Origin: Candidatus Omnitrophota bacterium
Lineage (GTDB): Bacteria; Omnitrophota; Gorgyraeia; Zapsychrales; JANLHA01
Direction: 5' to 3'
NCBI GenBank assembly: GCA_963662715.1
Contig: OY759724.1
Span: forward strand, 750,001-782,000
DNA length: 32,000 bases
Within the stretch, counting starts at the first letter, position 1; the number at the start of each line of letters is the position of its first letter. Under the pieces are notes generated by a model, which saw only the letters and a program-made list of their open reading frames with translations, had not been told where the DNA came from and did not search any database. Positions 440 through 27,310 of the stretch are shown here, piece after piece. A program made the position numbers and the translations under genes.

Positions 440-3400
440 TTAATTCAGCCAGCTGATATCTTTTTCACGGCCGGCATAAAATTTTTCCCGGCTGTCAGAC
501 GGTAAGGCTGACCGCCTTGTCGCCGAAGGAGGACTTTCTTCCGGCCCCTCCTCAGTTAAACCTAACAATAAAGGAATATTCACCGGCGCGATGTTAATGA
601 TAACCGGCAAAAACCCGTCAATTCTCATATCACCCACCGGCTGCTGCGGCAAAGGCAGCGGCACGCCCTGGCCGTCCCGCTTGATCTGCAGATCAAGTGC
701 GGCCGGGTTAAAGTCAATACCGCCTAACGGCGAAGAGGCCGGTTCAGGTTCTTTCCCCAGTTCATAGCGTTTAATCTCCTGCCGATAGTCCCTGGCCCTG
801 TCCTGATAAAACCAGCGCTCGGACAAGACCACGGAATCCACGTCCACGTCTCCCCAATGTTCATAGCGAATATCTTCAATGGCTTTTAAAAGGATCTCCG
901 GTTCATCTCCGGTTAAATCTTCAACAATCCAGCCAAAAGTCGCATGAGCGACAAACGGATCAAACTTTGGGCCCTTTTGCGTCATATCAAAAAATTGATC
1001 CTGCAGGCCCTTCACTTCATCCCGGGCATTGTCCGTCATTAACATCGGGATAAAAATGGCTTTGCCCTGAAACATGCCTATCCCCTGAGCCATGAATTTA
1101 AAGGCACCGACCCGCCCCGGGATAAGCTGATCAAGCACAGCCACGGTTTCCTCTGTCACTTGCTCTTTCTGCCGGGGATCAGTCGTAAAATATGTCACTG
1201 AAGCATACGGCAGCGAGGGCACATCCCAGGCGATCTTATCAATGATCGATTGGGGAAGACGCGCCTTAAGCGCTTCCTGCGCTTTGGCCATGATCGCCTC
1301 CGGCATATTAAAATGCAAGAGATGTTTTAATTCCTCCTCCATCATCCTTTGGTCTTTCTGCACGGGCGTTCGTAAGGCCTCCTGCCACTTCTGTTCAAAG
1401 ATATCCCAGCTGGCCTGATATTCCGGAAGGATGGCGACCGGAGAACTTGCAGTATCAAAACTGTCAGTAATATTAATGACCTCGGCCTTATCTTTTTGAT
1501 GTATTGCGCTTGATACATTTTCATTTAACCGTTTTGTCCATTCGGCATATTCTTCTTCATACCCTTGTCTTGTCGCATTAGGTATTCTGTGCTCACCTAT
1601 AACTTCAGTATCTCTTCCCCACGTTTGGTTTTCCGGGCCGGCACCTTCATTAGGATCCCATAAGATTGGGAATACAAGTTCTTCTGGCTCTCTGGCAATA
1701 CGATCCAGAAGGGCTTCCATGGCCCTTTTGTATAATTTTACTGCGGAAGCACCTCTATATCCCCGACCCCATAAAATATCAGAAATAATTTCGAGTCTCA
1801 TATCAGGATATCTCCGGTGATGGGTGTCGATAAACTCCACGATTTCATCTTCTGTGACACCCCCTGTTCTTAAAATTTCTTCAAGAGCGACAAAAGTTTC
1901 CTTGTTCCTCAGAAAATCTTTGATCTCAAATAGAGAACGAAGGGTTTCTCTGTCTTCAACCTTCCCCAATGCTTGCATAGTCCATATTCTCGAACTCAAT
2001 GGGGCCTCATAAAAACCTTCACTATATTGACTTGCTCTTAGATAAGCACCCGCCAATTCCGCCTCAGACACTTCTAATGTTTTTAATGCTTGATCCACTG
2101 CTTCTAAAAGGTCAATATCCGCCTCGGAAAACATTTTCAGCAATACCGGGACAGCCTTCTTTACGCGTAAATTTTCCAACACTTTAACAGCATTTAATTT
2201 TGCGGATTTCCCTTTTCCTTTCTCAAGGATACTTATGTAAGTGTCAATAAGATCTGAGAGGGCCACCCCCAATTTGTTCAAGGATGATTCCACCGCCTTT
2301 ATCAACGGCTCGTCATCCTCATAAAGCAATCCTGTGAGAACTTCAATCGCCCCTTTATTATCTAAATCAGCTGAATCTCCCAACAAATCTCCTAAAGTAC
2401 GGACCGCCCTAAGCCTGGCGATTCCTTTTCCTTTCTGTGCCGCCATAATATAGGCCTTTACTAATTTTTCTTTTGTTACGCCTAACTTTTCCAGGACTCC
2501 TTCAACGGCATTTAAAATCACTTTATTTTCTTCTGACAATAAATTCAATAAAGGTTCTGCCGCGTTTCCCTTATGGGAATCAGCAATAAAATCAAGAATA
2601 CTCAGTCTCACAGAGTCGGGGACCTGATGGTTGGCAAGTATTTTATATAATACGTCATCTATTCCTGCGGTATTCAACAAGACTGAAAGTATCGGTTCTT
2701 TCCTGTCGGAGTTTATTATCATCCCCGTTAAAATTTTCACGGCGGAGACCAAAGGAAGCTCTTTAGCTATTTCTTTTATTTGATCGTCACGGATATCTTC
2801 TCTAAGGACTACAAGAATCTCCTCTGCTTTATAGGCATGCGTTGTTTTAGGATTTTTAAGGACTCTGATCAAATGCGGTATTATTTTAGCGCCATAACCT
2901 ATCATTCTTTCCTTTGACAGTTTATTGTAATAATCATTACTATCAATTCTTAACAAATGGACATTGCCTCGCATCGTATGAAGTCTCCAAAACTTGTATA
3001 TCTTCCAAGCCGCTGTTAACGCTATCGCCCCGCCGATCGTGTACTCATTGATCAGTCCCGCCTCGGTCAAAGGCCGGGTGAAAGACAAATCGACAGTTTG
3101 TCCGTTTGCGACAGATAACAAACCGCCGTTTAAAACGCCGGCGAGGGTTATCGGCGAACTTTGCAATTCGGAATCAGCTGTCACCACCGGAGAAGAAACA
3201 GGACTGTCTGACGTACCGGTTTGCACCAATTCTATTCTTTCTGGAATAACGCTGACAAGTTCATCCCGTGCCGGCTCTATTACTTTTACTTGATCCCATG
3301 CCTCAACCCATCTCGTCTTTCTGGGCATTGTATAACCGGAAACATAGGAGACATCATCATAATCCTCATATTCATCCAAATAGCCCTCATGATGAATCGT

Positions 3401-6400
3401 CTCGGTCACCGCCTCATGATGTTTGTGTTCCGTCTTTTCCGGCCGGTAATTCACCATAAAATTATCACCGGATAAAACAATTTCTAATCCTTCGATGAAA
3501 AACGCGGCAACCTTATTCTTCGGCAATATCGCATTAAGACTCGCATAGGTTCGGTTGACGGCTAATGTTCGTGCATCGGTTAACCCATATATATTTGATA
3601 TATGTATAAAGGCGTCTATAACACCTAAACTTGTTGCCTCGAACATAACATCATAAAGCGCATCTAAAGCCTTGACGTCCGCCAGTTCCGCAAGTCCCCG
3701 GGCTATGCTTTCGGCATGATCTTTACTTCCCTGCAAGGCAGTGATAAGAGCCGTCACAAACCGTCCCTTATCAACACCGGCATTGAGCAGATCCCGGCTG
3801 AATCCCGGTCGTGAAAAAAGTGTCAACGCTCTTTCCAAATTAATAACTTTTATAGCCTTGATATTCAAATCTTCAAGATATTCATCAAGTCGGGACAGGC
3901 CAAACGCCCCTTCTTCATGCTGTTTTAAAATCCGCAAGTAATCCGCCAGCCCCGCCCGGGTATTCAGGCCCAAAGACTGCAGGAAAGACAGCACGTCCGC
4001 CCTAATGATATAAAGGTCTTCTCCGTCCTTTTCCCTGGCCAGGATATCTTCACCTAAACGCATATACCTGTCATCAGCCGTCTCTCTCAAGTATTCGGCC
4101 AATCTTCTTACCGCGTGTCTCTTAAGGTTATAACCGGCGCCCGGATACGGCTGATCAACCCACTCTACAAGTATGCCTGCAAAACTCTCCTCATCTCTCA
4201 TTCGTATAATATCCAACAGTTCCGCCTCTAAAACTCTCATCTGTCCAGGAGTCGGAGATCTCAGATTTCTTGCCCACTGGATATATGTTTGAAGGTCTCC
4301 CTGAACGCCGAACCGCTCCAAAGCAAGCATAAATAAGACACGGTTTTCCGGCGTAACAGCTTCATTCAAACGCGATTCCAGAAGCGGGACAGCCGTCTTT
4401 CTGTTGAGTCCGGCTGTTATTTGAATAGCCGCGTCACGGTCAACAGCATTAGTGCTCCTTAACAGGGATTCCAGGCTCCCCAACCTTCTCTTTCTTATAA
4501 CAGTATCCGTTATTTGGGCAACCACCGCCGGTTCTGACAACAATCGATACAAGTCCTTTTTGTCGAGACTTTTTACCCGTCTTAATCTTTCGCCCTCGGG
4601 CGCCGGCTGCACTTCTTCGATGTCTTTAAAAGCTCCCGGCATACGGTTCAATGTCCTTATGATCCGTCCATAATCTTCTCTGGTCGAGCAACCCAATGAT
4701 TGCAACATTTCATCCGCCGCTTCCCTGATAACGACAATTTCCGCTGATTGTTCTCCCTCGCCAATGGCTCTATCCTTGCCGAACTTATCAAAGAGGGGCT
4801 GCCGGTTTTCTGCCTGAAGTTCAAACATCCTTCCCACGGCAAATATTCTCATTGCTTGATCAACGTCATCCCCCAACCATGCTGTTAAAAGGCTTTTATA
4901 GTTTTCCTGATCATATTCCTTTAAAACATCCATCCCCTTAAAGACCTGCTCAGGAATACGCCCTGCGGAAGCTTCATGCACTCCTTGCAGCCACTCCAAT
5001 AAAGCCGGGACGTGCCCCTGTTGACCAAGCCGCGCTAAAATATAATTCAAGAGGACACGCATGCCTGCATCGTTTTTTGCCTTTATCAATAAAGGTTGCA
5101 GAAGCGGGATCGCAGCCCGCATATTTAAATGGGCAATGAGGTTTAACGCAAAAACATGAATATCCCTGTCAGGATGATCCAGTAAGGACCTGATATGGTA
5201 TAAAGTAAAGTCCCCTGCAAGACTGGTTAATGATTCCAATATGCTCTCTTTAACAGCGGCCCCCCGGTGATCTCTGTCTAATCTGAAGCGGAAATCATAC
5301 AACAAAGAAATCAACGGCAAAATAGCCTGTTTGCTTTGATATATTCCCATACCTTTAATGGCGTCCATGATTTCAGAATAATTATCAGTTAAATCAAGGC
5401 CTTTCTTTGTCACACGGAGAAGAATTCTTCTATACACTTCAGCTTTTTCTTCATCACTCAAATCATATTGCTCCAAGAGTTTTCTTTTGGCCTTATACCT
5501 TGTCCAGGAATAAGAACCATCCAAGCCATAAAACGCACCGCGCTTTGTTGTGTGCCGCCATAATCCCCATACCGTCCCCAGCCCCCCGGCGGCTATCGCA
5601 GCCCCGATGGAATAAGCATTAATGAACTCTGCGCCGGTAACCGGAGAACTGACATACTTCTGCCCTTCCTCTAATAATGGAGAAACAAAAGACAGGTCGA
5701 CTTGCTGTCCTTTAGCAATGGAAGTGAATCCATTCTTGAGCGCCCCGGCAATAGTCCCGGGGATAAAACCGGACAGGTTAATACTTGTGATTCCCGATGA
5801 AACGCGTTGAATATCCGCGGCTGTCATCTTTTCCACCGGGTAAACGTTGCCTTTCAAGTCGCGATAAAACGGGTTATCTCTTTCCACCGCTTCTTTAATG
5901 CGTTTCATCTGCCTGTTCAGGCTTCTGGGAACAAAGATGTCTCCCCGTCTCCCCGCCCACTCCGGCAGTAACTGTTCATTCATCAGGCGAAGGTTAAGAA
6001 TAATACCATGCTCTTTCGCAACCTGATCAAAAAGCGAAAAAAACAACTCATAGCCAATGAGATTGACAATATAACGAATTTTACGCATATCAAATTCATC
6101 TAATGAAACTGGTTCTCCAAAAGTCGAAAAACTGGTTTTTCGATCAATCAGCTCCCGCACTTCCGCAAACTCTATCCAGAATTGGCTTGATTCAACAAAC
6201 TTACCAATTAAATCCTGAACCGTCTTCAAATAAGTGTTCATGTCCGAGGTCGAAGTTGCAATGCGGTAAGTTTCGGATATGCCGGATTCTTCCAGCTTTT
6301 CTTTAACACGCGCTCCCAATGCCTGATAAAAATCTCGGCGGGCCTGCTCCAGCCTCCGGGTTTCTTCTCTTGTCAACCGCACTTGACTTTGCCTGCCAAG

Positions 6401-8752
6401 AGAAGACGGTTCTGCAACTTTGGCAATAATGTTCAACTCAGGTATCTTTAGATCTTGTTCGGGCAAAATATTAACAGGAAGCATTTCTAAAGCGGGTTTA
6501 TTTTGTTGGCTCTGATGATAATCGTCCAGGAGTTCCCGCGTCACTATCAAATAAAAATTCTGGTATTTATCCACCGCAATGGCCTGCACCGGATAACGTT
6601 TAAACCCGTCCGGACCTTGTGTATAAAAATAATCCTTAATCCCTTCTGCGGCATAATCTGTGGTTAAATCAGTAAAAGAAAAGATTATTTTTCGATCACT
6701 TAAATTAATCTCCGTAGCAGCTACCAGCTTTTTGTTCGTATCACGCACGCCTACTGTAAACATCAACTCCTTCATACCTAATTGCGACGTCTGCCAATGT
6801 ATTGAAAGATATTTATTATTAAATTCGATTAATCCATACTGCCCCTGCGGGTCCTGCACGACATTCACCCCTTGTTGTTTTTCCAATGCTTGGGCGAGCT
6901 GGGTGTAAAGATTCTTGACCTTCCCCTCTGCCGAAATCGCCGAGGAAGCATTGTCAGGTGGGATAGGAGTAGATATCGATATAACCGAAATTCTTTCCGG
7001 GATAACGACTTTTTCTTCATCCATTTTTTGTAGCATTAACGATCCGGTAACATATCCATCAGTATGATCCTCTCCTTCTCCGACAATTACATATCCAGGA
7101 GGGATAGAAGATCGGTCCACGGTTTCACCATTGCTAATGGCGGCAGATCCATAACTTATTCTTTCCCCGGGAATATATTGTATTTCTTCTTTTTCAGGAA
7201 TATACTCAACTTTAAAATCATTCCCTCCTTTTCTGATCTTCCAGGCCTCATGAAGATGCCTTAAAACTTCGTCATCAGCTTTTAATTTTGTCGATTTTCC
7301 TTCCAGCACTTGTTGAACTCTTCCCCTCAAATCCTCCTCAACTTGAAAAAGATTTATGACGATAGGATCATCTTTAGCTGTTAATTTCAAGTTAGATAAT
7401 GCTGTGTTAACTCTTTGAATATTCGAACTCCCAAGCTTGAATAAATTCCAGCTAATATATAACCGCTTTAATATCGGGGAAGAACTCCCTTCTGTTGGGG
7501 ATAAATCATCCAACCCTTTATCTGCATTCTCAACCAGCTCGATGCTCACCCGTCTGTCCTTACCCTTCGTCGACTCAGGCTGCGTGATCGCCGAACTCAC
7601 GCGTCCCGGCAGCCGGCCCGGCTGGCCGCGCAAGACCTCCAGTTTGTCCACCGTCACAACGCCTACGCCCAACCCCCCGGAAAAATATTTCCGCGGTATC
7701 ACCTGCTGCGTCGCTTCATCGTAATCTTCCCGTATATAGTTGTAGACGCCTTGCTTGAACGCGTCCAGATACTGCTGGTATATCTTCTCCTTTATCTCTT
7801 TGTCTTCAACATCGATCCCCTTCACCTTGTTCCGGTCCATGTACACCTGGCCCAATAAACTGTCCCGCAAATTCTTCTTGTACCAGGTCGCCAGGATCAT
7901 TGAGTTGTAGATCTGCCGCAAGTTCGCGAACGTCTGCCCTTCATTCACTTCCTTCTCTATCGCCGGAAGGATAATATCCTTGACGATCTTTGAGGACAGT
8001 TCATTCAGCTCCTTGGCCTGCCCTTCTGACTGTTTGTGCAACCCCAGGTCTTTGCTCTGCAGATTGTGCTCTAACGCCAGATAATCCTCTTCCAGCATCA
8101 CCTTCAAGTGCCGTTCCACCACAAACGCGCTGCCCTCATGCTCATAGACAACCGCCTTATCCGGCACGATCCATACCTTATTAAATGTGTTTACCGGGAT
8201 GTTTGTCGTGCCGTACAGCTCATAGGCCTTTTTATAGACTTTATTCCAGAACGCCTGGCCCAGGTCCTCTTCCGGATACATCAACGAAGCGGTGAGCTGT
8301 TTCAGCAGGTAATCCTGGGAGAGCATGTCCTTGCCCATTTCCGTAACGCCCAACCCTTCGGGGATGATCCGGTTGTTTTCATATGGCGATAAGTTGACCC
8401 ACAGTTCATCTTCGGGGACCGTCAAAGCCGCCAGGAAATACTTGATCAGCCTCTGCGACTCGGCTTCAAAAGAGGCTCCTTTTAAATCCTTGTCTCCCGT
8501 ATCAATAATGAAATCAAACTGCAGAGGGTTGTCCGGATGGATGGTGAGCCCCCGCAGGATCGCCGGGGCAAATGTCTCGCTGATCTTAAGGATCCTCCCC
8601 GGCTGCGGCAGGGAGAAGACAGCAGCCCGCTCTTCTTTGGCCCACCCCGGTGTCGGTATAAGGACAGACGACAATAAAAAGACCGCGGCCATGCCGGCCG
8701 ATAAAAGGCGGCGGAATATAATATTCGACTTTGTTATAAATAACTCAAACAT
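440..8752 (-). CDS. Giant (2770 aa) secreted modular protein: signal peptide, conserved head domain, two hydrophobic-helix + HEAT-repeat arrays, conserved C-terminal tail motif
   Basis: This is the longest ORF in the window. The N-terminus has a basic stretch (FRR), a hydrophobic core (LLSAGMAAVFLLSSVL) and PTPGWA/KEE, which looks like a signal peptide. Residues ~45-375 form the head domain shared with the 27311..32000 ORF. Recurrent A[IV]P[LV]L..L motifs indicate HEAT/PBS-lyase-like repeats. The C-terminal GGIDFNPAALDLQIKRDGQGVPLPLPQQPV...FLPVIINIAPV motif is shared with the other giant. All + strand ORFs inside it are short antisense shadows. Confidence 0.9.
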   Translation of the reverse strand: MFELFITKSNIIFRRLLSAGMAAVFLLSSVLIPTPGWAKEERAAVFSLPQPGRILKISETFAPAILRGLTIHPDNPLQFDFIIDTGDKDLKGASFEAESQRLIKYFLAALTVPEDELWVNLSPYENNRIIPEGLGVTEMGKDMLSQDYLLKQLTASLMYPEEDLGQAFWNKVYKKAYELYGTTNIPVNTFNKVWIVPDKAVVYEHEGSAFVVERHLKVMLEEDYLALEHNLQSKDLGLHKQSEGQAKELNELSSKIVKDIILPAIEKEVNEGQTFANLRQIYNSMILATWYKKNLRDSLLGQVYMDRNKVKGIDVEDKEIKEKIYQQYLDAFKQGVYNYIREDYDEATQQVIPRKYFSGGLGVGVVTVDKLEVLRGQPGRLPGRVSSAITQPESTKGKDRRVSIELVENADKGLDDLSPTEGSSSPILKRLYISWNLFKLGSSNIQRVNTALSNLKLTAKDDPIVINLFQVEEDLRGRVQQVLEGKSTKLKADDEVLRHLHEAWKIRKGGNDFKVEYIPEKEEIQYIPGERISYGSAAISNGETVDRSSIPPGYVIVGEGEDHTDGYVTGSLMLQKMDEEKVVIPERISVISISTPIPPDNASSAISAEGKVKNLYTQLAQALEKQQGVNVVQDPQGQYGLIEFNNKYLSIHWQTSQLGMKELMFTVGVRDTNKKLVAATEINLSDRKIIFSFTDLTTDYAAEGIKDYFYTQGPDGFKRYPVQAIAVDKYQNFYLIVTRELLDDYHQSQQNKPALEMLPVNILPEQDLKIPELNIIAKVAEPSSLGRQSQVRLTREETRRLEQARRDFYQALGARVKEKLEESGISETYRIATSTSDMNTYLKTVQDLIGKFVESSQFWIEFAEVRELIDRKTSFSTFGEPVSLDEFDMRKIRYIVNLIGYELFFSLFDQVAKEHGIILNLRLMNEQLLPEWAGRRGDIFVPRSLNRQMKRIKEAVERDNPFYRDLKGNVYPVEKMTAADIQRVSSGITSINLSGFIPGTIAGALKNGFTSIAKGQQVDLSFVSPLLEEGQKYVSSPVTGAEFINAYSIGAAIAAGGLGTVWGLWRHTTKRGAFYGLDGSYSWTRYKAKRKLLEQYDLSDEEKAEVYRRILLRVTKKGLDLTDNYSEIMDAIKGMGIYQSKQAILPLISLLYDFRFRLDRDHRGAAVKESILESLTSLAGDFTLYHIRSLLDHPDRDIHVFALNLIAHLNMRAAIPLLQPLLIKAKNDAGMRVLLNYILARLGQQGHVPALLEWLQGVHEASAGRIPEQVFKGMDVLKEYDQENYKSLLTAWLGDDVDQAMRIFAVGRMFELQAENRQPLFDKFGKDRAIGEGEQSAEIVVIREAADEMLQSLGCSTREDYGRIIRTLNRMPGAFKDIEEVQPAPEGERLRRVKSLDKKDLYRLLSEPAVVAQITDTVIRKRRLGSLESLLRSTNAVDRDAAIQITAGLNRKTAVPLLESRLNEAVTPENRVLFMLALERFGVQGDLQTYIQWARNLRSPTPGQMRVLEAELLDIIRMRDEESFAGILVEWVDQPYPGAGYNLKRHAVRRLAEYLRETADDRYMRLGEDILAREKDGEDLYIIRADVLSFLQSLGLNTRAGLADYLRILKQHEEGAFGLSRLDEYLEDLNIKAIKVINLERALTLFSRPGFSRDLLNAGVDKGRFVTALITALQGSKDHAESIARGLAELADVKALDALYDVMFEATSLGVIDAFIHISNIYGLTDARTLAVNRTYASLNAILPKNKVAAFFIEGLEIVLSGDNFMVNYRPEKTEHKHHEAVTETIHHEGYLDEYEDYDDVSYVSGYTMPRKTRWVEAWDQVKVIEPARDELVSVIPERIELVQTGTSDSPVSSPVVTADSELQSSPITLAGVLNGGLLSVANGQTVDLSFTRPLTEAGLINEYTIGGAIALTAAWKIYKFWRLHTMRGNVHLLRIDSNDYYNKLSKERMIGYGAKIIPHLIRVLKNPKTTHAYKAEEILVVLREDIRDDQIKEIAKELPLVSAVKILTGMIINSDRKEPILSVLLNTAGIDDVLYKILANHQVPDSVRLSILDFIADSHKGNAAEPLLNLLSEENKVILNAVEGVLEKLGVTKEKLVKAYIMAAQKGKGIARLRAVRTLGDLLGDSADLDNKGAIEVLTGLLYEDDEPLIKAVESSLNKLGVALSDLIDTYISILEKGKGKSAKLNAVKVLENLRVKKAVPVLLKMFSEADIDLLEAVDQALKTLEVSEAELAGAYLRASQYSEGFYEAPLSSRIWTMQALGKVEDRETLRSLFEIKDFLRNKETFVALEEILRTGGVTEDEIVEFIDTHHRRYPDMRLEIISDILWGRGYRGASAVKLYKRAMEALLDRIAREPEELVFPILWDPNEGAGPENQTWGRDTEVIGEHRIPNATRQGYEEEYAEWTKRLNENVSSAIHQKDKAEVINITDSFDTASSPVAILPEYQASWDIFEQKWQEALRTPVQKDQRMMEEELKHLLHFNMPEAIMAKAQEALKARLPQSIIDKIAWDVPSLPYASVTYFTTDPRQKEQVTEETVAVLDQLIPGRVGAFKFMAQGIGMFQGKAIFIPMLMTDNARDEVKGLQDQFFDMTQKGPKFDPFVAHATFGWIVEDLTGDEPEILLKAIEDIRYEHWGDVDVDSVVLSERWFYQDRARDYRQEIKRYELGKEPEPASSPLGGIDFNPAALDLQIKRDGQGVPLPLPQQPVGDMRIDGFLPVIINIAPVNIPLLLGLTEEGPEESPPSATRRSALPSDSREKFYAGREKDISWLN
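8357..8706. repeat. Copy B of the ~350-bp near-identical segment (5' coding end of the 2770-aa gene)
   Basis: Same manual alignment as for 1..350, at an offset of 8356 nt. Confidence 0.85.
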
Positions 8753-12026: not shown

Positions 12027-12240
12027 AATGTCCACCTTTCTGAAGAATAGTCCAATTAATGAAAAAAAGCCTTTAGGCAAGCATTTTTCGTTCATTCACG
12101 GCCTGGAACCGGCCGGACACCTTTTCATCTTAACAATAGTGATGCCCTGTGTCTACGGGAAAAAAAGACATTTACCCGCTGTTTTCTTTGGCGGTAACTT
12201 CATTATCCTCAACATATTATGAAAACAAATCTGCTGGTCT

Positions 12241-12269
12241 TTGCTGCTGGCAAAACCCGGTTTTATATT
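12241..12269 (+). promoter_or_regulatory. Candidate sigma70-like promoter (TTGCTG-17-TATATT) for the riboswitch-controlled transcript
   Basis: TTGCTG lies at 12241..12246, followed by a 17-nt spacer and TATATT at 12264..12269, about 30 nt upstream of the candidate aptamer. This rests on sequence pattern only. Confidence 0.35.
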
Positions 12270-12295
12270 TTATACTTTATATTAGATATAGCGGA

Positions 12296-12380
12296 CTGAA
12301 CGATAAAGGCAAAACCGGTGTAAACCGGTGGCGCAAAGCTATAGGGTCCTTCAAAAGGATAGCCTGGCTGCCGAAGAAGT
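12296..12380 (+). promoter_or_regulatory. Candidate c-di-GMP-I (GEMM-I) riboswitch aptamer
   Basis: The sequence reads AAAGGCAAAACC-[ACCGGU GUAA ACCGGU]-GGCGCAAAGC-[GCUAU..CCUU CAA AAGG AUAGC]-CUGGCUGCCGAAG. P1 pairs GGCA 12308..12311 with UGCC 12369..12372. P2 is a perfect 6-bp stem (12314..12319 / 12324..12329) capped by the GNRA tetraloop GUAA. The conserved CGCAAAGC junction is at 12332..12339. P3 pairs 12338..12342 with 12359..12363 and carries an internal bulge. From memory, this layout and the GGCAAA / CGCAAAGC / UGCCGAA strings match the GEMM-I consensus and the V. cholerae Vc2 aptamer. Confidence 0.65.
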
Positions 12381-12388
12381 CAAAGAAA

Positions 12389-12428
12389 ACAGGCTTATTC
12401 CTTATTGAGGGGATGAGCCTGTTTTTTT
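12389..12428 (+). terminator. Rho-independent terminator (riboswitch expression platform)
   Basis: An 11-bp stem pairs 12390..12400 (CAGGCUUAUUC) with 12411..12421 (GGAUGAGCCUG, including G-U pairs). The loop is 10 nt and a run of 7 T follows at 12422..12428. AGCCUG also occurs inside the aptamer (12361..12366) and could pair with CAGGCU 12390..12395 as an antiterminator. Confidence 0.7.
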
Positions 12429-12513
12429 GGCCAAACGAGGTCAAAGGCCAAAACAGGAATACAAAAGCTCTGTGACCACTTTTCAGCCGGGTCTGCCTAG
12501 AAAGGAGACACTT

Positions 12514-12747
12514 ATGCAACGAATGAGATGGGCGGCTCTAATCCTCTTGATGGTGATTTCTCCGTCTTTGGGACAAGCGGAAATGCTGGCAAAAACCTCC
12601 GTGCTTAACAAACCACAGAAACAAGAACAGGTCGTTAAGAAAAAAGGCGCGATGATCAAAATCGGAAGTGTGCCTTACAGTAAAGACGGAGTGCTGAGAA
12701 AAGGAGCTGCGCTTAAAATAGGCTCCTATCCTTTGACCGAAAGTTAA
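12514..12747 (+). CDS. Small secreted Lys-rich protein (77 aa) with an internal GxxxKIGSxP repeat
   Basis: ATG 12514 is preceded by AAAGGAG (12501..12507). The protein begins MQRMRWAALILLMVISPSLGQA/EM, a signal peptide. The mature part contains GAMIKIGSVPY and GAALKIGSYPL. It lies downstream of the riboswitch and terminator. The longer track ORF (from 12427) would start inside the terminator. Confidence 0.65.
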   Translation: MQRMRWAALILLMVISPSLGQAEMLAKTSVLNKPQKQEQVVKKKGAMIKIGSVPYSKDGVLRKGAALKIGSYPLTES

Positions 12748-12782
12748 TGAACACGTATTAGAACTTGGACGATAAATCATAA

Positions 12783-12830
12783 AGGCCGGTAGAGATCTTG
12801 CCTCTTGCTGATCTGCTGCCGGCCTTTCTT
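12783..12830. terminator. Candidate bidirectional hairpin terminator between convergent genes
   Basis: AGGCCGG (12783..12789) pairs with CCGGCCU (12819..12825), and an inner helix pairs AGAUC with GAUCU. T-rich sequence (TTTCTT) follows on the + strand and an AAA/T-rich flank lies on the other side. The stem is imperfect. Confidence 0.4.
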
Positions 12831-12919: not shown

Positions 12920-14317
12920 TTAAAGTGTCATTTCCTCCAGATAATCCGGGATCAAAATTTCACTTGGGATTTTCTGTTGCAGGGCCCCGGCAAACGCGTA
13001 GGCCGAGTCTTCTTCCGCATGGACAATAATAACTTTTTGAAGTTTGGGATTAAAATGCGTGACCCAGCGCAGGAGGTCACTCTGTCCCGCATGGGCAGAA
13101 AACCCGTTCAATGTTTCAATTCTCGCCTTAACAGGGTGCCTGTGCCCTAATATCCGGACGTCCCGGGGCTGCTCTAAAATATACCGGCCCAACGTTCCTT
13201 TGGCCTGGTACCCCACGAAAAGAATCGTGCTTTCCGGCTTGGAAATGTTATGAACGAGGTGATGTTTGATCCGGCCGCCGGTACACATGCCGGAAGACGA
13301 CATGATAATGCAGGTTCCTTTTTCATGATTGATCTCTTTGGACTCCTGAACCGAAGAAGTGAATTTCAGCATCGGCATTTGAAAAAGCGTCTTGTGCGCC
13401 CGCAGCCGTTTTTGCGCCTCCGCATCAAAATAATCAGTGTGCTTGTTGAAAACTTTCGTAATATTGATCGCCATCGGGCTGTCCATGAAAGTCCTTAATT
13501 CCGGGATACGCCCTTGTTCGACCAGTTGATTCAGGTCATACATCAATTCCTGGGCCCGGCCGATCGCAAAAGTCGGGATGACAATGTTCCCGTTTGATTT
13601 CTTCGTTGTCTTGATCACTTCCGCCAGTTTCTGAAGGGCGTCCTGCCCTTGCTCATGGTCTCTGGCCCCATACGTCGCTTCCATGACCACATAATCGGCT
13701 CTTTGAAAAAGATACGGGTCCCCGATAATGGGCCGTCCCCACCGGCCGATATCGCCGGAAAAAACAATCCGTTTCTCCTGCCCCGCATCATAAACGACAA
13801 GCTCAATCATGCTTGATCCCAGGATATGCCCGGCGTCGTAAAAAACCGCTTTGATATCCTTCTGAACATTAACTTCCGTCAAATAGTGCACGGGACTGAA
13901 GAGCGGAAAAACCTTCTCCACATCTTCAATGGTATACAAAGGCACCTCGGGATGAGGCCCGCTCCTTCCTTCCCGCTGATGTCTTTTCTTTTTGTCCTGC
14001 GCATCCGCCAGCTGCAGGTGAGCCGAATCAATCAAACTGACCTTGGAGATGTCTGCCGTCGGAGGCGTGCAGAAAATCTTTCCGCTGAAGCCGTCAGCCG
14101 CCAATTTCGGCAAATAACCGCAGTGGTCTATATGCGCGTGCGTCAAGAGAACAGCGTCAATGCCGGCGGGGTCAATGGGCAATTTATCCCAGTTACGAAA
14201 CCGGAAATCCCTCTCCTGAAAAATACCGCAATCAATCAGGATGCGGGAAGAATCCGTTTCTAAAACAAACTTTGAACCTGTGACATTTTTTGTCGCCCCC
14301 AGAAATATTATTTTCAT
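12920..14317 (-). CDS. MBL-fold metallo-hydrolase of the beta-CASP (RNase J / CPSF-like) family
   Basis: The N-terminus reads MKIIFLGATKNVTGSKFVLE...ILIDCG, and the metallo-beta-lactamase motif THAHIDHCGYLP (HxHxDH) is present. The length (465 aa) and C-terminal region (GFSAHAGQSDL) are typical of beta-CASP ribonucleases. Confidence 0.9.
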   Translation of the reverse strand: MKIIFLGATKNVTGSKFVLETDSSRILIDCGIFQERDFRFRNWDKLPIDPAGIDAVLLTHAHIDHCGYLPKLAADGFSGKIFCTPPTADISKVSLIDSAHLQLADAQDKKKRHQREGRSGPHPEVPLYTIEDVEKVFPLFSPVHYLTEVNVQKDIKAVFYDAGHILGSSMIELVVYDAGQEKRIVFSGDIGRWGRPIIGDPYLFQRADYVVMEATYGARDHEQGQDALQKLAEVIKTTKKSNGNIVIPTFAIGRAQELMYDLNQLVEQGRIPELRTFMDSPMAINITKVFNKHTDYFDAEAQKRLRAHKTLFQMPMLKFTSSVQESKEINHEKGTCIIMSSSGMCTGGRIKHHLVHNISKPESTILFVGYQAKGTLGRYILEQPRDVRILGHRHPVKARIETLNGFSAHAGQSDLLRWVTHFNPKLQKVIIVHAEEDSAYAFAGALQQKIPSEILIPDYLEEMTL

Positions 14318-15436: not shown

Positions 15437-15868
15437 ATGAATCAATCGATAGGCATCCGGGCTCCCGTTCTTGCGGGTATATTATGCCTTGCTATACAGC
15501 AGCCGGTAGCCGATTCAGCCGTCAGCCGTCCTCCCGCCAAAGCCTACCACAGAAAAGGCCCCCGGGTTCTTTACGGCCAGGCCTCCTGGTACTCTGAAAA
15601 ATCTCCCGGGATCAGGAAAAAAACAGCTAACAATGAAATTTTTAACGATAAAAAACTGACAGCGGCTATGTGGGACGTGGCTTTTAACCAGAAGGTCAAG
15701 GTGACCAATCTGGACAATGGGAAAGCTGTGATTGTCAGGGTGAATGACCGGGGGCCGCACAGGCGTTATTATAAAAAAGGCCGGATCATCGACTTAACCA
15801 AGGTCGCCTTTGCCAGGCTGGAACATCCGAAAAAGGGACTGGTCAGTGTCGAGATGCTGAAAGACTGA
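15437..15868 (+). CDS. rlpA: RlpA-like septal ring lytic transglycosylase (DPBB domain) protein
   Basis: A signal-like N-terminus is followed by GQASWYSE...TANNEIF...LTAAMWDVAFNQKVKVTNLDNGKAVIVRVNDRGP...GRIIDLTKVAF, the RlpA double-psi beta-barrel signature. A GGAG SD lies 8 nt upstream of the ATG. Confidence 0.8.
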   Translation: MNQSIGIRAPVLAGILCLAIQQPVADSAVSRPPAKAYHRKGPRVLYGQASWYSEKSPGIRKKTANNEIFNDKKLTAAMWDVAFNQKVKVTNLDNGKAVIVRVNDRGPHRRYYKKGRIIDLTKVAFARLEHPKKGLVSVEMLKD

Positions 15869-21717: not shown

Positions 21718-22716
21718 CTACGGCATATCCACACCGTCTAAAATTCTGTCCACCAGATTCTCGGCCGTTATGTTCAGCCCGCGGGCCTGGTAACTTTCGA
21801 TTAACCGATGGCTCAGAACATCCCGGGCCACAGCTCTGATGTCCTGCGGCCGCACATAAGCCCGGCCCTGAACCAAGGCGTAGGCCCGGCTGGCCACGGA
21901 AAGATGTATGCCGGCCCTCGGTGAAACACCGTATTTAATAAGCCCGACTAAATCATTCATCCCGAACTTATCCGGCTGGCGGGTTGCTTCAACAATATCC
22001 AAGATATAATCCTGCACCTTTTTTTCGATATGTATGCGGTCTACAAGGGTTCTGAGCCGCAGGATATGTTCAGGGTCCAGGACGGGATTGACGTCGAATT
22101 TGACATCGGTAAAAGCCATGCGCTGCAGGATCAACGCTTCTTCCTCCCGTGTCGGATAAGTCATCGACACCTTCAACATAAACCGGTCCAATTGAGATTC
22201 GGGCAAGGGATAAGTCCCGTCCTGCTCTATCATGTTCTGGGTGGCGAGGACTAAAAACGGCTCTGTTAATGCATAAGAGGCATCCCCGATCGTGACCTGC
22301 CGCTCCTGCATGGCTTCCAGCAGCGCGCTCTGGACTTTGGCCGGGGCACGGTTAATTTCATCCGCTAAAACAATGTTGGCGAACACGGGCCCTTTTTTAA
22401 CATAAAAAGACGCCGTACGCTGGTCGTACACCGGGGCCCCGGTTAAATCCGCCGGGAGCATGTCAGGGGTAAACTGAATACGGCTGAACTGCAGCTGCAC
22501 GGCCATGGCGAACGTTTTTACGGCCAGGGTTTTCGCCAGGCCGGGCACGCCTTCGATGAGGATATGCCCTCCGGCGAGCATCCCCAGAAGAATACGCTCA
22601 ATCAGGTCCTTCTGCCCGACAATAACATTTTCTATCTGCTGAAAGAATTCTCCGAATTTCCGAGACTCGTGCTGGATTTCTTTTTCTAACTCTTTCATCG
22701 TAGATTCTTTCATCAT
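21718..22716 (-). CDS. MoxR-family AAA+ ATPase
   Basis: The sequence reads VGQKDLIERILLGMLAGGHILIEGVPGLAKT (MoxR Walker A, GxPGxAKT), then LADEINRAPAKVQSALLEAMQE (Walker B/sensor region), then ATQNMIEQDGTYPLPESQLDRF. The size (332 aa) fits. Confidence 0.9.
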   Translation of the reverse strand: MMKESTMKELEKEIQHESRKFGEFFQQIENVIVGQKDLIERILLGMLAGGHILIEGVPGLAKTLAVKTFAMAVQLQFSRIQFTPDMLPADLTGAPVYDQRTASFYVKKGPVFANIVLADEINRAPAKVQSALLEAMQERQVTIGDASYALTEPFLVLATQNMIEQDGTYPLPESQLDRFMLKVSMTYPTREEEALILQRMAFTDVKFDVNPVLDPEHILRLRTLVDRIHIEKKVQDYILDIVEATRQPDKFGMNDLVGLIKYGVSPRAGIHLSVASRAYALVQGRAYVRPQDIRAVARDVLSHRLIESYQARGLNITAENLVDRILDGVDMP

Positions 22717-22740
22717 ATATCCCCTCTCCTGTTTTCTTCC

Positions 22741-25700
22741 TTACCAGTAAAAAATCCGGTTTTCATCTCCGGCCAGCGTTTCAACCAGATTTTTTTCACT
22801 CATCTTAGCACCGACCATAAAAATATTCATCTTTTTTTCACGAAGAGGACTCATCCGGATCTCCTGCTCCGTTCTCTGCATAAAGTCCGTCAACGCGACC
22901 TGCTGTAAGAAAACATCATTTTCTTCAGACGTATAAAAATCCAATCCGGAGATATCCAGCGTCATATGCCCGGCGATGCTTTGTTCATATCTTTCTTTGA
23001 TCTTCGTCAAAATTTTCTCGGAAAAAGACAAACAGTCTCTATCGGCAGAAAGACGTACGGGATATTCATGCAACGTTCCCGTGGGGTCAATCAAAATCAG
23101 TCTCTCTAACACCGTTTCGGAACGGAACAGATGGAACATTTTGACCGAACGGGCAAAGTCCCTGGCCCAAAGCCTTCGGCCCTCTTCATAATGCAAACCC
23201 CTCATATCCAGCCACAGGGCGACGCGGGCCCCGTAAGGATTGCTGAAGCGTCTGACCATGGGAACGGATGTGGCATAGCGCGCCGTGGCCTTCCAATCAA
23301 TGTGCCGGATATCGTCTCCCGACATATACTGCTCAAGCCGGTCAAACTCCACGCTCGTTTCATTGTTTTCCGGGATTTTGTCTCTCAGAAAATTAAAATT
23401 CATATGGGTCACCCGGGATTCCTGGAGGAGAAAGTCAAAAACCAGGGGTTTGACCCTGTCCAGGACATTGTCTCCTCGCGCCTTGGGGGCATTCTTCTGC
23501 GGCGGGGTATAAGTGTAAAAGATCTTTTTAAAACGGCTGTATAAAGACGGACAGGACGCTGTTTCCCGGATTTGAGTCAGCATAGACGCGATACTGTCAT
23601 TATATTCTTCCCGCAGATGAAAATATTTCTGCACCGGCCATATCCATAAAGCACGGCCCAGGTAAGGCCCCAAGAACGGCAGAAAAAACAACAGGTCATG
23701 CGCCTTGTTAACGACAGCTGATTTCTGCGGATTCAAGGGCGCCAGGAAAAGACAAACATCAAAAATAAACCGTTCTTTATCGCTGGCGGTTGATTTAAAC
23801 GCGCAAATATCCTTTTTAAGCTGAGGGTCTATCTGCCCTTTGGCAAGATAAACGCGTTTCAAAAGTTTCCTTTCCCGCTGTTCGGCTCCGAAGCTGTAGC
23901 CTTTGGCCCAGGGATTGTTGTTATAAATGCGGTCGATAATACTGGCCGGATCCCGGCCGTAAAACCTGCGTTTTCTATACGGAGCTCCCAGGGTATGAAT
24001 AAAGAATGCCGATAAGTTGAAAAAGATGAAGACAAAAACAGCTGCCGCGATGGATTCCGCGCTGGTAGCCTGGGGCAGGTGTTCGGAACGATAAAAAATC
24101 AAGCTGAGGGCATTGCGCAAAAATGACCACAAATGAAAGCCCCCTCCAACGCTGTCGGCTGTCCCGTCAAAAATAAAACGGGGTCCGCTTCTGGGGCCGA
24201 CCAAACCCACGCCGCCCAGGATATAACCCCGCTGTGCGATTCTGTGATCCGTTCCGTAAATGACTTCCTGAAAATTTGACATGACGGACATGTACCGGCC
24301 CGGCTCGGCCGTGGACAAATATTTCTCCGGTTCGCGATAAAGAAGATACGCCACTTCATGAAGAACATCATTGTCCATTTTTTGGATGTCGGCGGCGATA
24401 CGCCGGATGCGGTCTTTTTCAAAACGGTTGGAGATCAAAGGAGCTTTCCGGCCGGGGTTCTGCTCTGACAAATAAATGGACAGCCCGTTAAGAATCCCCT
24501 TGGAAGCTTGAGAATAATGGTCGAATTCATCCCCTTTTAAGGTTTCGGCCACCAGTCTCTGAGAGATGTACTCCTTCCGGTCACCGGCCCATAAAACCGG
24601 GGCCAGCATAGAATTCAATTCAATATTTTCGGGTAACGGCTTATTTTCAAAACGAAAACGCAGGTGATCAACGACGTGTCCCGTTTCATGAAAGGCCGTC
24701 CATTCCACGTGAGAAGTCATCCGGCGGAAAACAATGGCAAATTCACCTTCAAAGTATCCTGCCCGGTCAAGAAAAGGATACTCCTCTCCTTCCACGACAT
24801 AAGAAACAGCCGGCCACAACTCTGATCTTTTAACCTTCTCCCTATCCATTCCCAGACGCTGAAACGCCTCTTCAGCAAAAACGTACCGTTTTAAGATCGG
24901 TTCCGAGAACAAAAAAAGATAAGGAACGTCCTCTTCCAAAATAATAAAGGTAAAAGGAAAAACATTATAAGAGATAAATGCTCTTCTCAGATCCAGAAGT
25001 TCATTTCTTAAAGCCCCTTCCTGTATGGTCTGCTGCCCGAACAGCGTGATGATATTGCCGATAGAACGCGCGATACGTCCGTCAAGATAATAAGCCGCTT
25101 CCACGACATCGTTCTTCAGCTGGGCATCCAGGTTCCAGTCTGCCATCAGCAGAAAAAAACCTTTGAGGATATGCCGGCAGAAAAAGAGGAACCCTTCCCG
25201 GGAACGGTAAAGCCTTTTAGCGTAAAAAACGCGAAGATTATGTCTTATCTGCTCCGGAGAATAAGTTTCCCCGATAGCTGCGACCCGGGTTTTGAAGTAT
25301 CCTTCTTTTTCTTTATCGGCGAGGGATTCGGCATCAAATTTGAAAATCTTTTTTAGCTCAAAAACAAAAACCCGCCATAACCGGTTATCCGCATCCGTCC
25401 GCTCCAGGGCGGCCAAACAGAGTCCGGACAACACAAAAGCCAGAACCAAAGCCGCCGTTAAATTTCGAAATCTTTTCCGCTGGCCGGCCCGGACAAACCG
25501 GACAAAAGGATCGACGGTACGCCGGTACATATCCTTAAGCTGGTCGGAAAAAGGATAATACCCGTGCAGCCAGTCTTCCAGTCGGATAAGCCAGGCGCTT
25601 TTCCCGGAGCCTTCCTCCCTGAAATCTTCGGGAACGGCGGCCGTTAAAGTTTTCTGAGCTTCTATGAAAAGCCCGGTCATGGCTTCCTGGGCCATAGTGA

Positions 25701-26316
25701 TCTGAAAACGGTTACGCAGGTTATAATGACTTTCCGTGAGGATAAAACGCAAATACCGGTAAATATGACCGCATAACTTATGATAAACAACCCGCCAGGG
25801 GCTGGTGTTGGCCGGGATGCGGTCCAATTGCCGTTTAAGAAGATATATTTCGCGTTCCCGTGCCTCGGGCCACAGGCCTTTTTTAGCTTTATCTTCCAGG
25901 TCCTTCCAAAGATCGCTGGCCTCTTTTTCAACACGGTGACGTTCTTTATCGTGCCGTTTTCCCGGCTGTTTCCCGGGCAGATTTTCTTCGGCGGGCCAGC
26001 GCAGATCGGCATAAAACGCGATCCATCGCCTGGTTTTAAAATAAATAGCATCAATCTGTGACAAATATTTCAGAAAAAACGGCTGTAATTGCGGCTTGTC
26101 CGCCGGGGTATGTTTCTGTAACGACAGAATATATGCCCTCAGGCGGTGATGGGATAATTCCACCTGCCGGTCGATAGATAAAATACTTAATGTATCTGCT
26201 TTGGGATGGCGGATGCTTTTTCGATAGGCATCTTCTAATCTGCGGATATGCTTAAGAGGCTCTTCGCTCAAATTCTCGGAGAGAGCGAAAAATTTTTTAA
26301 TAAAAGAAAAAGTCAT
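22741..26316 (-). CDS. Large (1191 aa) membrane protein: N-terminal region with HExxH motif fused to a C-terminal DUF58 domain
   Basis: The DUF58 signature YMSGDDIRHIDWKATAR lies at about nt 23280..23320. HETGH lies at nt 24676..24690 in the context EWTAFHETGHVVDH. Hydrophobic helices LTAALVLAFVLSGLCLAAL and AAAVFVFIFFNLSAFFIHTL are present. The stop is 24 nt before the MoxR start. Confidence 0.85.
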   Translation of the reverse strand: MTFSFIKKFFALSENLSEEPLKHIRRLEDAYRKSIRHPKADTLSILSIDRQVELSHHRLRAYILSLQKHTPADKPQLQPFFLKYLSQIDAIYFKTRRWIAFYADLRWPAEENLPGKQPGKRHDKERHRVEKEASDLWKDLEDKAKKGLWPEAREREIYLLKRQLDRIPANTSPWRVVYHKLCGHIYRYLRFILTESHYNLRNRFQITMAQEAMTGLFIEAQKTLTAAVPEDFREEGSGKSAWLIRLEDWLHGYYPFSDQLKDMYRRTVDPFVRFVRAGQRKRFRNLTAALVLAFVLSGLCLAALERTDADNRLWRVFVFELKKIFKFDAESLADKEKEGYFKTRVAAIGETYSPEQIRHNLRVFYAKRLYRSREGFLFFCRHILKGFFLLMADWNLDAQLKNDVVEAAYYLDGRIARSIGNIITLFGQQTIQEGALRNELLDLRRAFISYNVFPFTFIILEEDVPYLFLFSEPILKRYVFAEEAFQRLGMDREKVKRSELWPAVSYVVEGEEYPFLDRAGYFEGEFAIVFRRMTSHVEWTAFHETGHVVDHLRFRFENKPLPENIELNSMLAPVLWAGDRKEYISQRLVAETLKGDEFDHYSQASKGILNGLSIYLSEQNPGRKAPLISNRFEKDRIRRIAADIQKMDNDVLHEVAYLLYREPEKYLSTAEPGRYMSVMSNFQEVIYGTDHRIAQRGYILGGVGLVGPRSGPRFIFDGTADSVGGGFHLWSFLRNALSLIFYRSEHLPQATSAESIAAAVFVFIFFNLSAFFIHTLGAPYRKRRFYGRDPASIIDRIYNNNPWAKGYSFGAEQRERKLLKRVYLAKGQIDPQLKKDICAFKSTASDKERFIFDVCLFLAPLNPQKSAVVNKAHDLLFFLPFLGPYLGRALWIWPVQKYFHLREEYNDSIASMLTQIRETASCPSLYSRFKKIFYTYTPPQKNAPKARGDNVLDRVKPLVFDFLLQESRVTHMNFNFLRDKIPENNETSVEFDRLEQYMSGDDIRHIDWKATARYATSVPMVRRFSNPYGARVALWLDMRGLHYEEGRRLWARDFARSVKMFHLFRSETVLERLILIDPTGTLHEYPVRLSADRDCLSFSEKILTKIKERYEQSIAGHMTLDISGLDFYTSEENDVFLQQVALTDFMQRTEQEIRMSPLREKKMNIFMVGAKMSEKNLVETLAGDENRIFYW

Positions 26317-26442
26317 GGGGTCGGGGTGTCTTTAACAGTAAAAACATATGACCTGTTCGGCTACTTGTCATTATAATCGTTATAAGGACTTAGGAAAGCA
26401 TTATTTATTGTTCCCTTGAAACGTCATGGCCGGATTCACATA

Positions 26443-26494
26443 CAAAACGGGGCCGTAAGAAGCAGCGCTCAGCCACCTTCTTCCTCCGGCCCCG
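26443..26494 (-). terminator. Candidate terminator hairpin after the 44-aa ORF
   Basis: The minus strand reads GGGGCCG-GAG-GAAGAAG...CUUCUU-A-CGGCCCC followed by GUUUUGU. The outer stem pairs 26488..26494 with 26449..26455. Confidence 0.45.
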
Positions 26495-26510
26495 GATATT
26501 TTTTCTGTTC

Positions 26511-26645
26511 CTATCCCCTTACCGGGGTGGAAGAAACGACAAATGAACTTCCATAGGAATCCGTGACTTCCAGTATTTCAAATAAATTCCCGAACCAGAT
26601 AGCCACAAGAAACAAAGGAATAAATATGTAAGCTGTTCTTTTCAT
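26511..26645 (-). CDS. Candidate 44-aa hydrophobic peptide (below the ORF-track size cut-off)
   Basis: My own translation is MKRTAYIFIPLFLVAIWFGNLFEILEVTDSYGSSFVVSSTPVRG, ending at stop TAG (26513..26511). It is preceded by the strong SD GAGAGGAGAAAAGA-ATG. It has one N-terminal TM-like helix, and a hairpin terminator follows. Confidence 0.4.
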   Translation of the reverse strand: MKRTAYIFIPLFLVAIWFGNLFEILEVTDSYGSSFVVSSTPVRG

Positions 26646-26858
26646 TCTTTTCTCCTCTCTCGAATCCCTTCTTCAGGTATTCACCTTATTGCCCCTTTAA
26701 TGTCTTTACTTGTGATTTAGTCGGGAATACAGGGACTTGCTTACATGGAAATCATCACGCCGTTACGGGAATAATGCAAATTATTGACATATAGCATATT
26801 AGAATCATAGAAATCGGGCACAAGGGAAGGATTGTTGGAAGCTTTCTGCGTCCTGATG

Positions 26859-27083
26859 TTAAATAATACTCCCGAAGGGGTTCCGGGGGCCGAGATTAAC
26901 GGCTCGCAGAAACGAAGGAAGTTTTCTGGCGGGGATAATAATTTCCGTGACCTTTTCTCTTGTCACGTCTTCAAAAATCATCTTTAAACCAACCTGGCCT
27001 TCATCATCACTGAAATGTTTGGCATAAAGGCTGTAATTCGCTCCGCAATCGCTCCATTCAATGAGTTCATTAATTCTGGCCAT
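26859..27083 (-). CDS. Hypothetical 74-aa soluble protein
   Basis: The ORF has a GGAG SD 5 nt upstream of its ATG. A perfect consensus promoter lies about 45 nt upstream of the ATG. I recognise no family. Confidence 0.6.
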   Translation of the reverse strand: MARINELIEWSDCGANYSLYAKHFSDDEGQVGLKMIFEDVTREKVTEIIIPARKLPSFLRAVNLGPRNPFGSII

Positions 27084-27126
27084 ATGATCGCTCCAATGTT
27101 TTATGGTTGAGTTGGCTTTGGAAGGA

Positions 27127-27155
27127 ATTATATTATTCCGCCATTTTCATGTCAA
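27127..27155 (-). promoter_or_regulatory. Perfect consensus sigma70 promoter (TTGACA-17-TATAAT)
   Basis: The minus strand reads TTGACA (27155..27150), then the 17-nt spacer tgaaaatggcggaataa, then TATAAT (27132..27127). It lies directly upstream of the 74-aa ORF and downstream of the giant-gene terminator. Confidence 0.65.
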
Positions 27156-27216
27156 GCGCAGATGATATAGATATCCACCGGCTCACGCCAGCGACTTTTA
27201 CACACCCATAAAAACT

Positions 27217-27253
27217 GAAAAAAGAGAGCCTCAAAAGGGGCCCTCTTTTTTTC
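27217..27253. terminator. Bidirectional rho-independent terminator after the giant gene
   Basis: The stem pairs AGAGAGCCUC (27223..27232) with GGGGCCCUCU (27237..27246), with one mismatch and one G-U pair, and an AAAA loop. An A-run (27218..27223) and a T-run (27246..27252) flank it. It lies about 60 nt downstream of the stop at 27311. Confidence 0.65.
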
Positions 27254-27310
27254 AATATTTTCTAAGATGAAACATTTATATTCTGCAGGAAGGGATAAAA
27301 ATCCTGCAAA

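Follow-up and report, generated by a model that had tools for sequence, protein, structure and literature searches.

A probable class I c-di-GMP riboswitch of predicted OFF design upstream of an orphan gene for a predicted secreted peptide in an Omnitrophota-like genome

The window, meaning the whole 32-kb stretch of DNA that was analysed, contains a compact plus-strand locus that comprises, in this order, a c-di-GMP-I (GEMM-I) aptamer, an intrinsic terminator, and an open reading frame (ORF) for a 77-aa pre-peptide (Table 1). Aptamer, terminator, antiterminator, ribosome-binding site, and ORF all lie on one strand, in the arrangement of a sense 5′ leader, and a candidate promoter detected by consensus scan would put the transcription start approximately 15 to 20 nt 5′ of the aptamer. 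The neighbour on the upstream side is a divergent 561-aa lipoprotein-like ORF of no known family. On the other side, a beta-CASP metallo-hydrolase gene converges on the peptide ORF, and the 16-bp hairpin between the two genes, which has T-rich flanks, is probably a bidirectional terminator that would stop both transcripts. The next plus-strand gene after the peptide ORF does not occur before position 15437, so the leader would serve a single-gene transcript. A preliminary description of this DNA placed the element between loci for giant surface proteins and called the peptide the sole regulon member. The former does not describe the immediate neighbours, which are those given above, the giant ORFs (2770, 1191, and 1554 aa) being at least 3.7 kb away, and the latter is not claimable from a single 32-kb window. 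Pfam analysis of 17 window ORFs detected no GGDEF, EAL, or PilZ domain, in line with the same description. The best relative of the beta-CASP protein is encoded in a Candidatus Omnitrophota metagenome-assembled genome (L002; 60% identity), which points tentatively to the phylum, and neither the riboswitch nor the peptide was found at the corresponding site of L002.

Table 1. Positions of the features of the riboswitch locus in the window
Feature	Position	Strand	Basis or details
Sigma-70-like promoter (candidate)	12247..12276	+	Consensus scan, 9/12 matches; −35 CTGGCA, 18-nt spacer, −10 TATACT; putative function
c-di-GMP-I (GEMM-I) aptamer, type II	12299..12376	+	RF03167, 65.0 bits; model R1, 75.4 bits; GUAA tetraloop, no tetraloop receptor
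G20 equivalent	12308	+	Model alignments; unpaired in consensus fold
P2 (P1a)	12309..12334	+	Model alignments; G12309-C12310/G12333-C12334 plus 6-bp helix 12314-12319/12324-12329, GUAA cap 12320-12323
A47 equivalent, ligand-contacting base	12335	+	RF03167 alignment: consensus CGCGAAgC, window CGCAAAGC
P3 (P1b)	12337..12369	+	Model alignments; 10 pairs, bulges AU 12341-12342 and AG 12361-12362
Antiterminator 5′ strand (predicted)	12348..12366	+	Duplex energy, nascent folding; P3 loop plus P3 3′ strand, G83 included
C92 equivalent	12371	+	Model alignments
Intrinsic terminator	12383..12428	+	Folding and shuffles; core stem 12390-12403/12408-12421, then U7 12422-12428
Antiterminator 3′ strand (predicted)	12390..12411	+	Duplex energy, nascent folding; terminator 5′ arm, loop, and first bases of 3′ arm
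Shine-Dalgarno sequence	12502..12507	+	Read from sequence; AAGGAG, 6 nt 5′ of ATG
77-aa pre-peptide ORF	12514..12747	+	Ribosome-binding site, predicted signal peptide, repeats
16-bp hairpin between peptide ORF and beta-CASP gene	12782..12826		−33.3 kcal/mol, z = −3.1
beta-CASP metallo-hydrolase gene, convergent to peptide ORF	12920-14317	−	

When the whole window was scanned with Rfam at gathering thresholds, the only match was at 12299..12376 on the plus strand, to RF03167, named c-di-GMP-I-GGC (gathering score 59; E = 2e-13). A second member of clan CL00126, most probably RF01051 (gathering score 35), also exceeded its own gathering score and was ranked below RF03167, and a permissive Rfam rescan of 12200..12520 added nothing beyond noise. 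An independent covariance model of our own, R1, was built from an alignment of 57 unrelated metagenomic aptamers of the short-P3, A47 type, with the window sequence left out. Searched against both strands of the 32 kb at E ≤ 10, R1 returned 12299..12376 as its only match (E = 7e-20). The match is far beyond chance, and the two lines of evidence agree with the preliminary call of a GEMM-I aptamer. The helices on which the model depends are well supported among the 57 relatives: 92% of paired cells held a pair, as against 23 to 44% when the partners were slid, and double changes were present in 173 cells compared with 49 expected from shuffles. For the inner helix of P2, changes on both sides were seen at all six pairs, with 97% of cells paired, and for P3 91% of cells were paired.

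The three-way P1/P2/P3 architecture that marks membership of GEMM-I can be formed in the window, with standard base pairs at all 20 consensus pairs of the aptamer. P1 of the family corresponds to C12301-G12302 paired with C12372-G12373; the GGCA/UGCC helix previously offered as P1 is an RNAfold alternative to it. The inner helix of P2 reads ACCGGU-GUAA-ACCGGU (12314..12329), the junction CGCAAAGC occupies 12332..12339, the P3 strands 12337-12348 and 12358-12369 pair around an asymmetric bulge, and the 3′ segment CUGGCUGCCGAAG lies at 12364..12376, in keeping with the preliminary description, nearly all of whose features occur at the positions given there. A GNRA/GYRA tetraloop on P2 is accompanied by a receptor in type I aptamers and not in type II (PMC11218506). 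The GUAA tetraloop and the short P3 devoid of a receptor motif assign the window element to type II. As identified by its sequence, 12299..12376 is a genuine, canonical class I c-di-GMP (GEMM-I, type II) aptamer. It has in common with RF01051, as represented by Vc2 of Vibrio cholerae, the three helices, G20, A47, and C92, the C44-G83 pair, a GNRA-type P2 tetraloop, and a place in the 5′ leader of a secreted or surface-related gene. Vc2, with its GAAA tetraloop and 11-nt receptor, belongs to type I; the window aptamer, a type II member with GUAA, has a short P3 from which this receptor is absent. The window element also differs from Vc2 in its probable host, an Omnitrophota-like bacterium, and in having an orphan as its regulated gene.

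The ligand-contact residues of the family are G20, A47, and C92 (PMC4744006, PMC11218506, PMC6140456), and each has an identical counterpart in the window (Table 1). Of the two guanines of c-di-GMP, one is contacted at its Hoogsteen edge by G20, where an A would be indicative of cGAMP, and the other is bound by C92 through Watson-Crick pairing (PMC6140456). C44-G83, a conserved interhelical Watson-Crick pair (PMC4744006), is represented by C12332-G12362; C12332 is part of the P2 bulge GGC, and G12362 belongs to the P3 bulge AG. Family membership and the binding-site nucleotides were computed, and ligand binding is predicted from them: given canonical G20, A47, and C92 together with C44-G83, the expected ligand is c-di-GMP, rather than cGAMP or an unidentified ligand. 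Some characterised GEMM-I elements do not give the predicted c-di-GMP response, Bc1 in vivo being an example (PMC11218506).

The terminator downstream of the aptamer folds with −28.4 kcal/mol (z = −6.4), and none of 200 shuffles folded as well. Both the terminator and its run of seven U residues had been described before, with a stem of 11 bp; the core stem has 14 bp, and A:U pairs lengthen the hairpin to 21 bp over 12383-12428. A simple terminator scan did not flag 12383..12428. The upstream A-tract makes the terminator element symmetric.

A competing helix connects the two structures. The hexamer AGCCUG is found twice, at 12361-12366 and 12416-12421, and its complement CAGGCU at 12390-12395, exactly as reported in the preliminary description, and the pairing extends beyond the hexamer to an 18-bp duplex of −24.1 kcal/mol between 12348-12366 and 12390-12411. 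Among 2000 shuffles of the downstream segment, one gave a duplex as good (p ~0.0005). In simulated nascent transcripts with a 3′ end between 12395 and 12415, the antiterminator is the minimum-energy fold, and with the 3′ end at 12410 its advantage over the best aptamer-retaining fold is 8.9 kcal/mol; the terminator becomes favoured only after its 3′ arm is made. The minimum-energy fold of the full-length leader in the absence of ligand is aptamer plus terminator. It follows that antitermination can only be a kinetic effect, and termination might be constitutive for the most part. The aptamer, which ends at 12376, shares no bases with the terminator, which leaves no room for a direct ON design. 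The competing helices and their relative energies were computed; for the direction of the switch in vivo, we infer that an OFF switch, with c-di-GMP binding favouring termination, is most likely. The same logic had been proposed earlier from the repeated hexamer, and the statistically unusual 18-bp antiterminator that dominates the nascent folds supports and extends that proposal.

Orthologous leaders were sought in genome contigs by way of the beta-CASP neighbour and none was found, and the one further copy of the locus, a strain variant, shows no differences across this region, so covariation gives no support to the expression platform. Among the aptamers found, the one nearest to that of the window is L120, which shares its layout; by eye, 10 nt from the 3′ strand of P3 (TCAAGGATAG) recur in the 3′ arm of the L120 terminator. 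The duplex shuffle test applied to L120 alone was not significant, and an automated antiterminator test of the other terminator-bearing loci, with crude arm definitions, was mostly not significant. A precedent for the proposed direction is the set of transcriptional OFF c-di-GMP-I switches that Sudarsan et al. reportedly described in 2008, among them Cd1, 5′ of flgB in Clostridioides difficile. As in Cd1, the window aptamer is succeeded by an intrinsic terminator, and ligand is predicted to favour termination, leaving the gene on at low c-di-GMP. The predicted antiterminator of the window differs from that of Cd1 in being drawn from the P3 loop and 3′ strand, and not mainly from the P1 3′ strand. 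Altogether we consider it probable that the locus is a canonical GEMM-I type II transcriptional OFF switch on a single-gene transcript.

The ORF downstream of the switch begins at 12514, one nucleotide before the start previously given, and otherwise matches its earlier description as a 77-aa signal-peptide ORF with two GxxxKIGSxP repeats. A Sec-type signal peptide, MQRMRWAALILLMVISPSLGQA, followed by E as the first mature residue, is predicted from sequence features; it is composed of MQRMR, then WAALILLMVISPSL, then GQA, contains no Cys, and has a hydropathy peak of 3.3 at residues 7-15. The mature part of 55 aa has a pI of 10.0 and 10 Lys residues and includes both repeats, GAMIKIGSVP and GAALKIGSYP. 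GC content by codon position has its minimum at position 2, as in the neighbouring genes. L001, a conspecific assembly that differs by 8 SNPs over 3719 nt, has both the riboswitch and the ORF unchanged. AlphaFold2, run on the peptide with no alignment supplied, gave an uninformative model, with a pLDDT of 61 and a pTM of 0.20.

No family could be assigned to the peptide with Pfam or NCBIfam, as the preliminary description had anticipated. A word-indexed search of 5.8 billion clustered proteins returned the peptide itself only, and an exhaustive phmmer search of 1.84 billion cluster representatives returned the peptide itself and P0002, with no credible homologue. P0002 is a protein of 1147 aa with many ...IKIGSKTY... 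repeats, and its match (E = 3.6e-5) was judged to be a repeat and composition artefact. The KIGSxP motif was not detected in six-frame translations of approximately 120 GEMM-I loci, and a resemblance of the N terminus to that of an ORF 3′ of another of the loci, L127, was set aside when BLASTP gave no alignment. The case that the 77-aa ORF is a real gene is thus built from signals in its own sequence, with no homologues to add to it, and secretion and function of the peptide are predicted. Flp pilins, type IV pilins, and small secreted proteins are frequent 3′ of the approximately 120 metagenomic GEMM-I aptamers, and for this reason a tiny secreted product is ordinary for GEMM-I, its orphan status being the only notable feature.

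These elements can be assembled into a mechanism. Transcription would start near 12283, and the emerging aptamer (12299-12376) would adopt the P1/P2/P3 junction fold. With c-di-GMP held by G12308, A12335, and C12371, and with C12332 paired to G12362, P3 would be kept closed, which would leave 12390-12403 free for pairing with 12408-12421; polymerase would then stop in the run of seven U residues (about 12428), releasing an RNA of approximately 145 nt. At low c-di-GMP, segment 12390-12411 would, once transcribed, invade P3 and pair with 12348-12366, and the resulting 18-bp antiterminator would block formation of the terminator. Read-through would proceed via AAGGAG into the 77-aa ORF, whose product would leave the cell through the Sec pathway, as a cationic peptide of 55 aa. 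Antitermination at low c-di-GMP implies that the peptide would be made in the low-c-di-GMP state.

In another reading, the aptamer is real and the ~145-nt terminated RNA might itself be the main product; like merRNA, it would serve as a sponge for c-di-GMP or work in trans as an sRNA, with the ORF secondary or spurious. The very strong terminator is consistent with such a role, as are the aptamer-plus-terminator fold of the ligand-free leader and the orphan ORF. The closest counterpart of the flanking beta-CASP gene lies in a genome of the Omnitrophota, a phylum for which host dependence has been proposed, and this counts in the same direction. The precedent is merRNA of the predatory bacterium Bdellovibrio bacteriovorus, a riboswitch RNA that has no conserved downstream ORF (PMC3627812). 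The window locus resembles it in the c-di-GMP-I aptamer, in the short terminated transcript, and in a bacterial host that may live at the expense of other cells. The two differ in that merRNA is massively expressed and lacks a conserved downstream ORF, whereas in the window an antiterminator and an ORF with clear signals are present. Under constitutive termination an 18-bp pairing as statistically unusual as this one would be purposeless, and the ORF has a strong, ideally spaced ribosome-binding site, a predicted signal peptide of textbook form, and a downstream hairpin of its own. The well-signalled ORF and the antiterminator make a merRNA-like role less likely, and we consider it unlikely as the main function of the locus.

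Read-through transcripts might instead, or in addition to controlling the peptide, act antisense on the beta-CASP gene. The convergent gene arrangement would permit this, and antisense-acting riboswitches are on record (PMC9943018, PMC3627812). Against it stand the proper ORF found directly 3′ of the switch and the 16-bp hairpin with T-rich flanks at 12782-12826, which probably ends both transcripts; with this hairpin intervening, antisense action is less likely, and we give it little credence.

The remaining alternatives accept the switch and change its ligand. Some Geobacter members of GEMM-I, the GEMM-Ib group, respond to cGAMP, and the window aptamer might be a cGAMP or bispecific riboswitch of this kind. 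The Geobacter examples are ON switches 5′ of extracellular electron-transfer genes. The fold is identical and the clan is the same as in GEMM-Ib riboswitches such as Gs1761, and cGAMP riboswitches have been hidden among GEMM-I collections (PMC7266159). However, position 20 is A in GEMM-Ib and G (G12308) in the window, and wild-type Vc2, with G20, binds cGAMP at ~10 uM compared with picomolar binding of c-di-GMP (PMC6140456). A cGAMP-responsive or bispecific aptamer at this locus is accordingly very improbable.

The other proposal follows from the Rfam label itself. RF03167 is the best-scoring clan member (65 bits against 59), and its scaffold is nearly identical to that of the window. We take the name GGC to denote the binding-site triplet G-G-C, with G in place of A at position 47, a reading drawn from the model consensus and from the variant that Weinberg et al. 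reportedly described in 2017. A scaffold pattern, GGCAAA...CGCRAAGC...AGCCNNGNTGCC, was scanned over metagenome contigs and gave 120 matches, in 119 of which position 47 is A. When 20 of these loci were rescanned with Rfam, all 19 that carry A47 had RF03167 as their top label, at 59 to 79 bits. The RF03167 label on A47 aptamers is a systematic cross-hit and is not diagnostic. That the window aptamer is a GGC variant sensing an altered or unknown ligand is the least probable of the alternatives, since the window has A12335 where the RF03167 consensus (CGCGAAgC) has its defining G, just 3′ of the closing G-C pair of P2, ordinary A47 aptamers receive the same label, and R1, a model made from A47 sequences alone, scores the window higher, at 75.4 bits.

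The canonical c-di-GMP-I OFF switch poses no challenge to the current understanding of riboswitches, and its value is first one of annotation, in that a little-studied lineage has a clean c-di-GMP-I riboswitch that is probably functional. The clan competition of Rfam 15 labels ordinary c-di-GMP-I aptamers as the GGC variant, and in view of the RF03167 cross-hits, nucleotide 47 should be inspected before an altered ligand is inferred. The riboswitch marks the 77-aa orphan peptide as a predicted output of c-di-GMP signalling and makes it a reasonable candidate for expression studies. More speculatively, and with a low probability in our estimation, the cationic 55-aa peptide might be a lineage-specific product secreted when c-di-GMP is low, such as a factor for attachment or attack in a free or searching state, or the 145-nt RNA might be a merRNA-like sponge. 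If either were true, the locus would offer a first entry point to behaviour under c-di-GMP control in a phylum without cultured models.

The aptamer nearest to that of the window is L120, from a metagenomic contig that stops 81 nt past the aptamer. The element TCAAGGATAG of its P3 3′ strand recurs in the 3′ arm of its terminator, and because of this repetition the antiterminator design of L120 is like that of the window riboswitch. In the window, an A-tract precedes the riboswitch terminator and a U-tract follows it; given this symmetry, the terminator could act on minus-strand transcripts too. Between the convergent 77-aa peptide ORF and beta-CASP gene lies a hairpin with T-rich runs on either strand, which is probably a bidirectional terminator. 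Coordinates of these and other features are collected in the table.

Features in the window and in metagenomic contigs
Feature	Location	Strand	Remarks
Riboswitch terminator	Window 12383-12428		
Intergenic hairpin	Window 12782-12826		16 bp, -33 kcal/mol
2770-aa ORF	Window 440-8752	-	Hydrophobic N-terminal segment
Gene cluster	Window 21718-31975	-	MoxR-type AAA ATPase (332 aa), 1191-aa protein, 1554-aa ORF
1191-aa protein	In the gene cluster	-	Contains DUF58 segment
Nearest aptamer	L120 895-1020		
GEMM-I aptamer pair	L028 888-967 and 1237-1316	Both on one strand	~270 nt between
GEMM-I aptamer pair	L059 2812-2890 and 3712-3791		
GEMM-I aptamer pair	L034 7009-7098 and 2961-3049		
tmRNA gene	L002 6940-7333		194 bits

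Five of the eight SNPs that separate the window from L001, a second assembly of the same species, are grouped at 12068-12222 (in the site 12029-12222). This places them upstream of the point where the divergent 561-aa lipoprotein-like ORF likely begins (MNNLVKAVTLAFLLIAVSGC, at about 12026), and the annotated 5′ extension of the ORF, to 12095, is probably noncoding. Among the large minus-strand ORFs, HEAT repeats were the sole domain detected in the 2770-aa ORF, and a Pfam search of the 1554-aa ORF at E ≤ 0.001 found no family. The cluster encoding the latter is similar in make-up to MoxR/DUF58/vWA-type operons but differs from them in its giant members.

GEMM-I aptamers occur in pairs on three metagenomic contigs, and the L028 pair may represent a tandem arrangement. 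The tmRNA gene on L002, the Omnitrophota MAG contig used in the synteny check, has no connection with the riboswitch finding.

With Rfam 15 and clan competition, the label RF03167 (c-di-GMP-I-GGC, the variant with G at position 47) was given to the window aptamer (12299-12376) and to all 19 ordinary A47 c-di-GMP-I aptamers tested (L013, L020, L022, L028, L034, L037, L041, L059, L063, L101, L103, L113-L115, L120, L122, and L125-L127). Automated annotation of such A47 aptamers could falsely point to a variant ligand.
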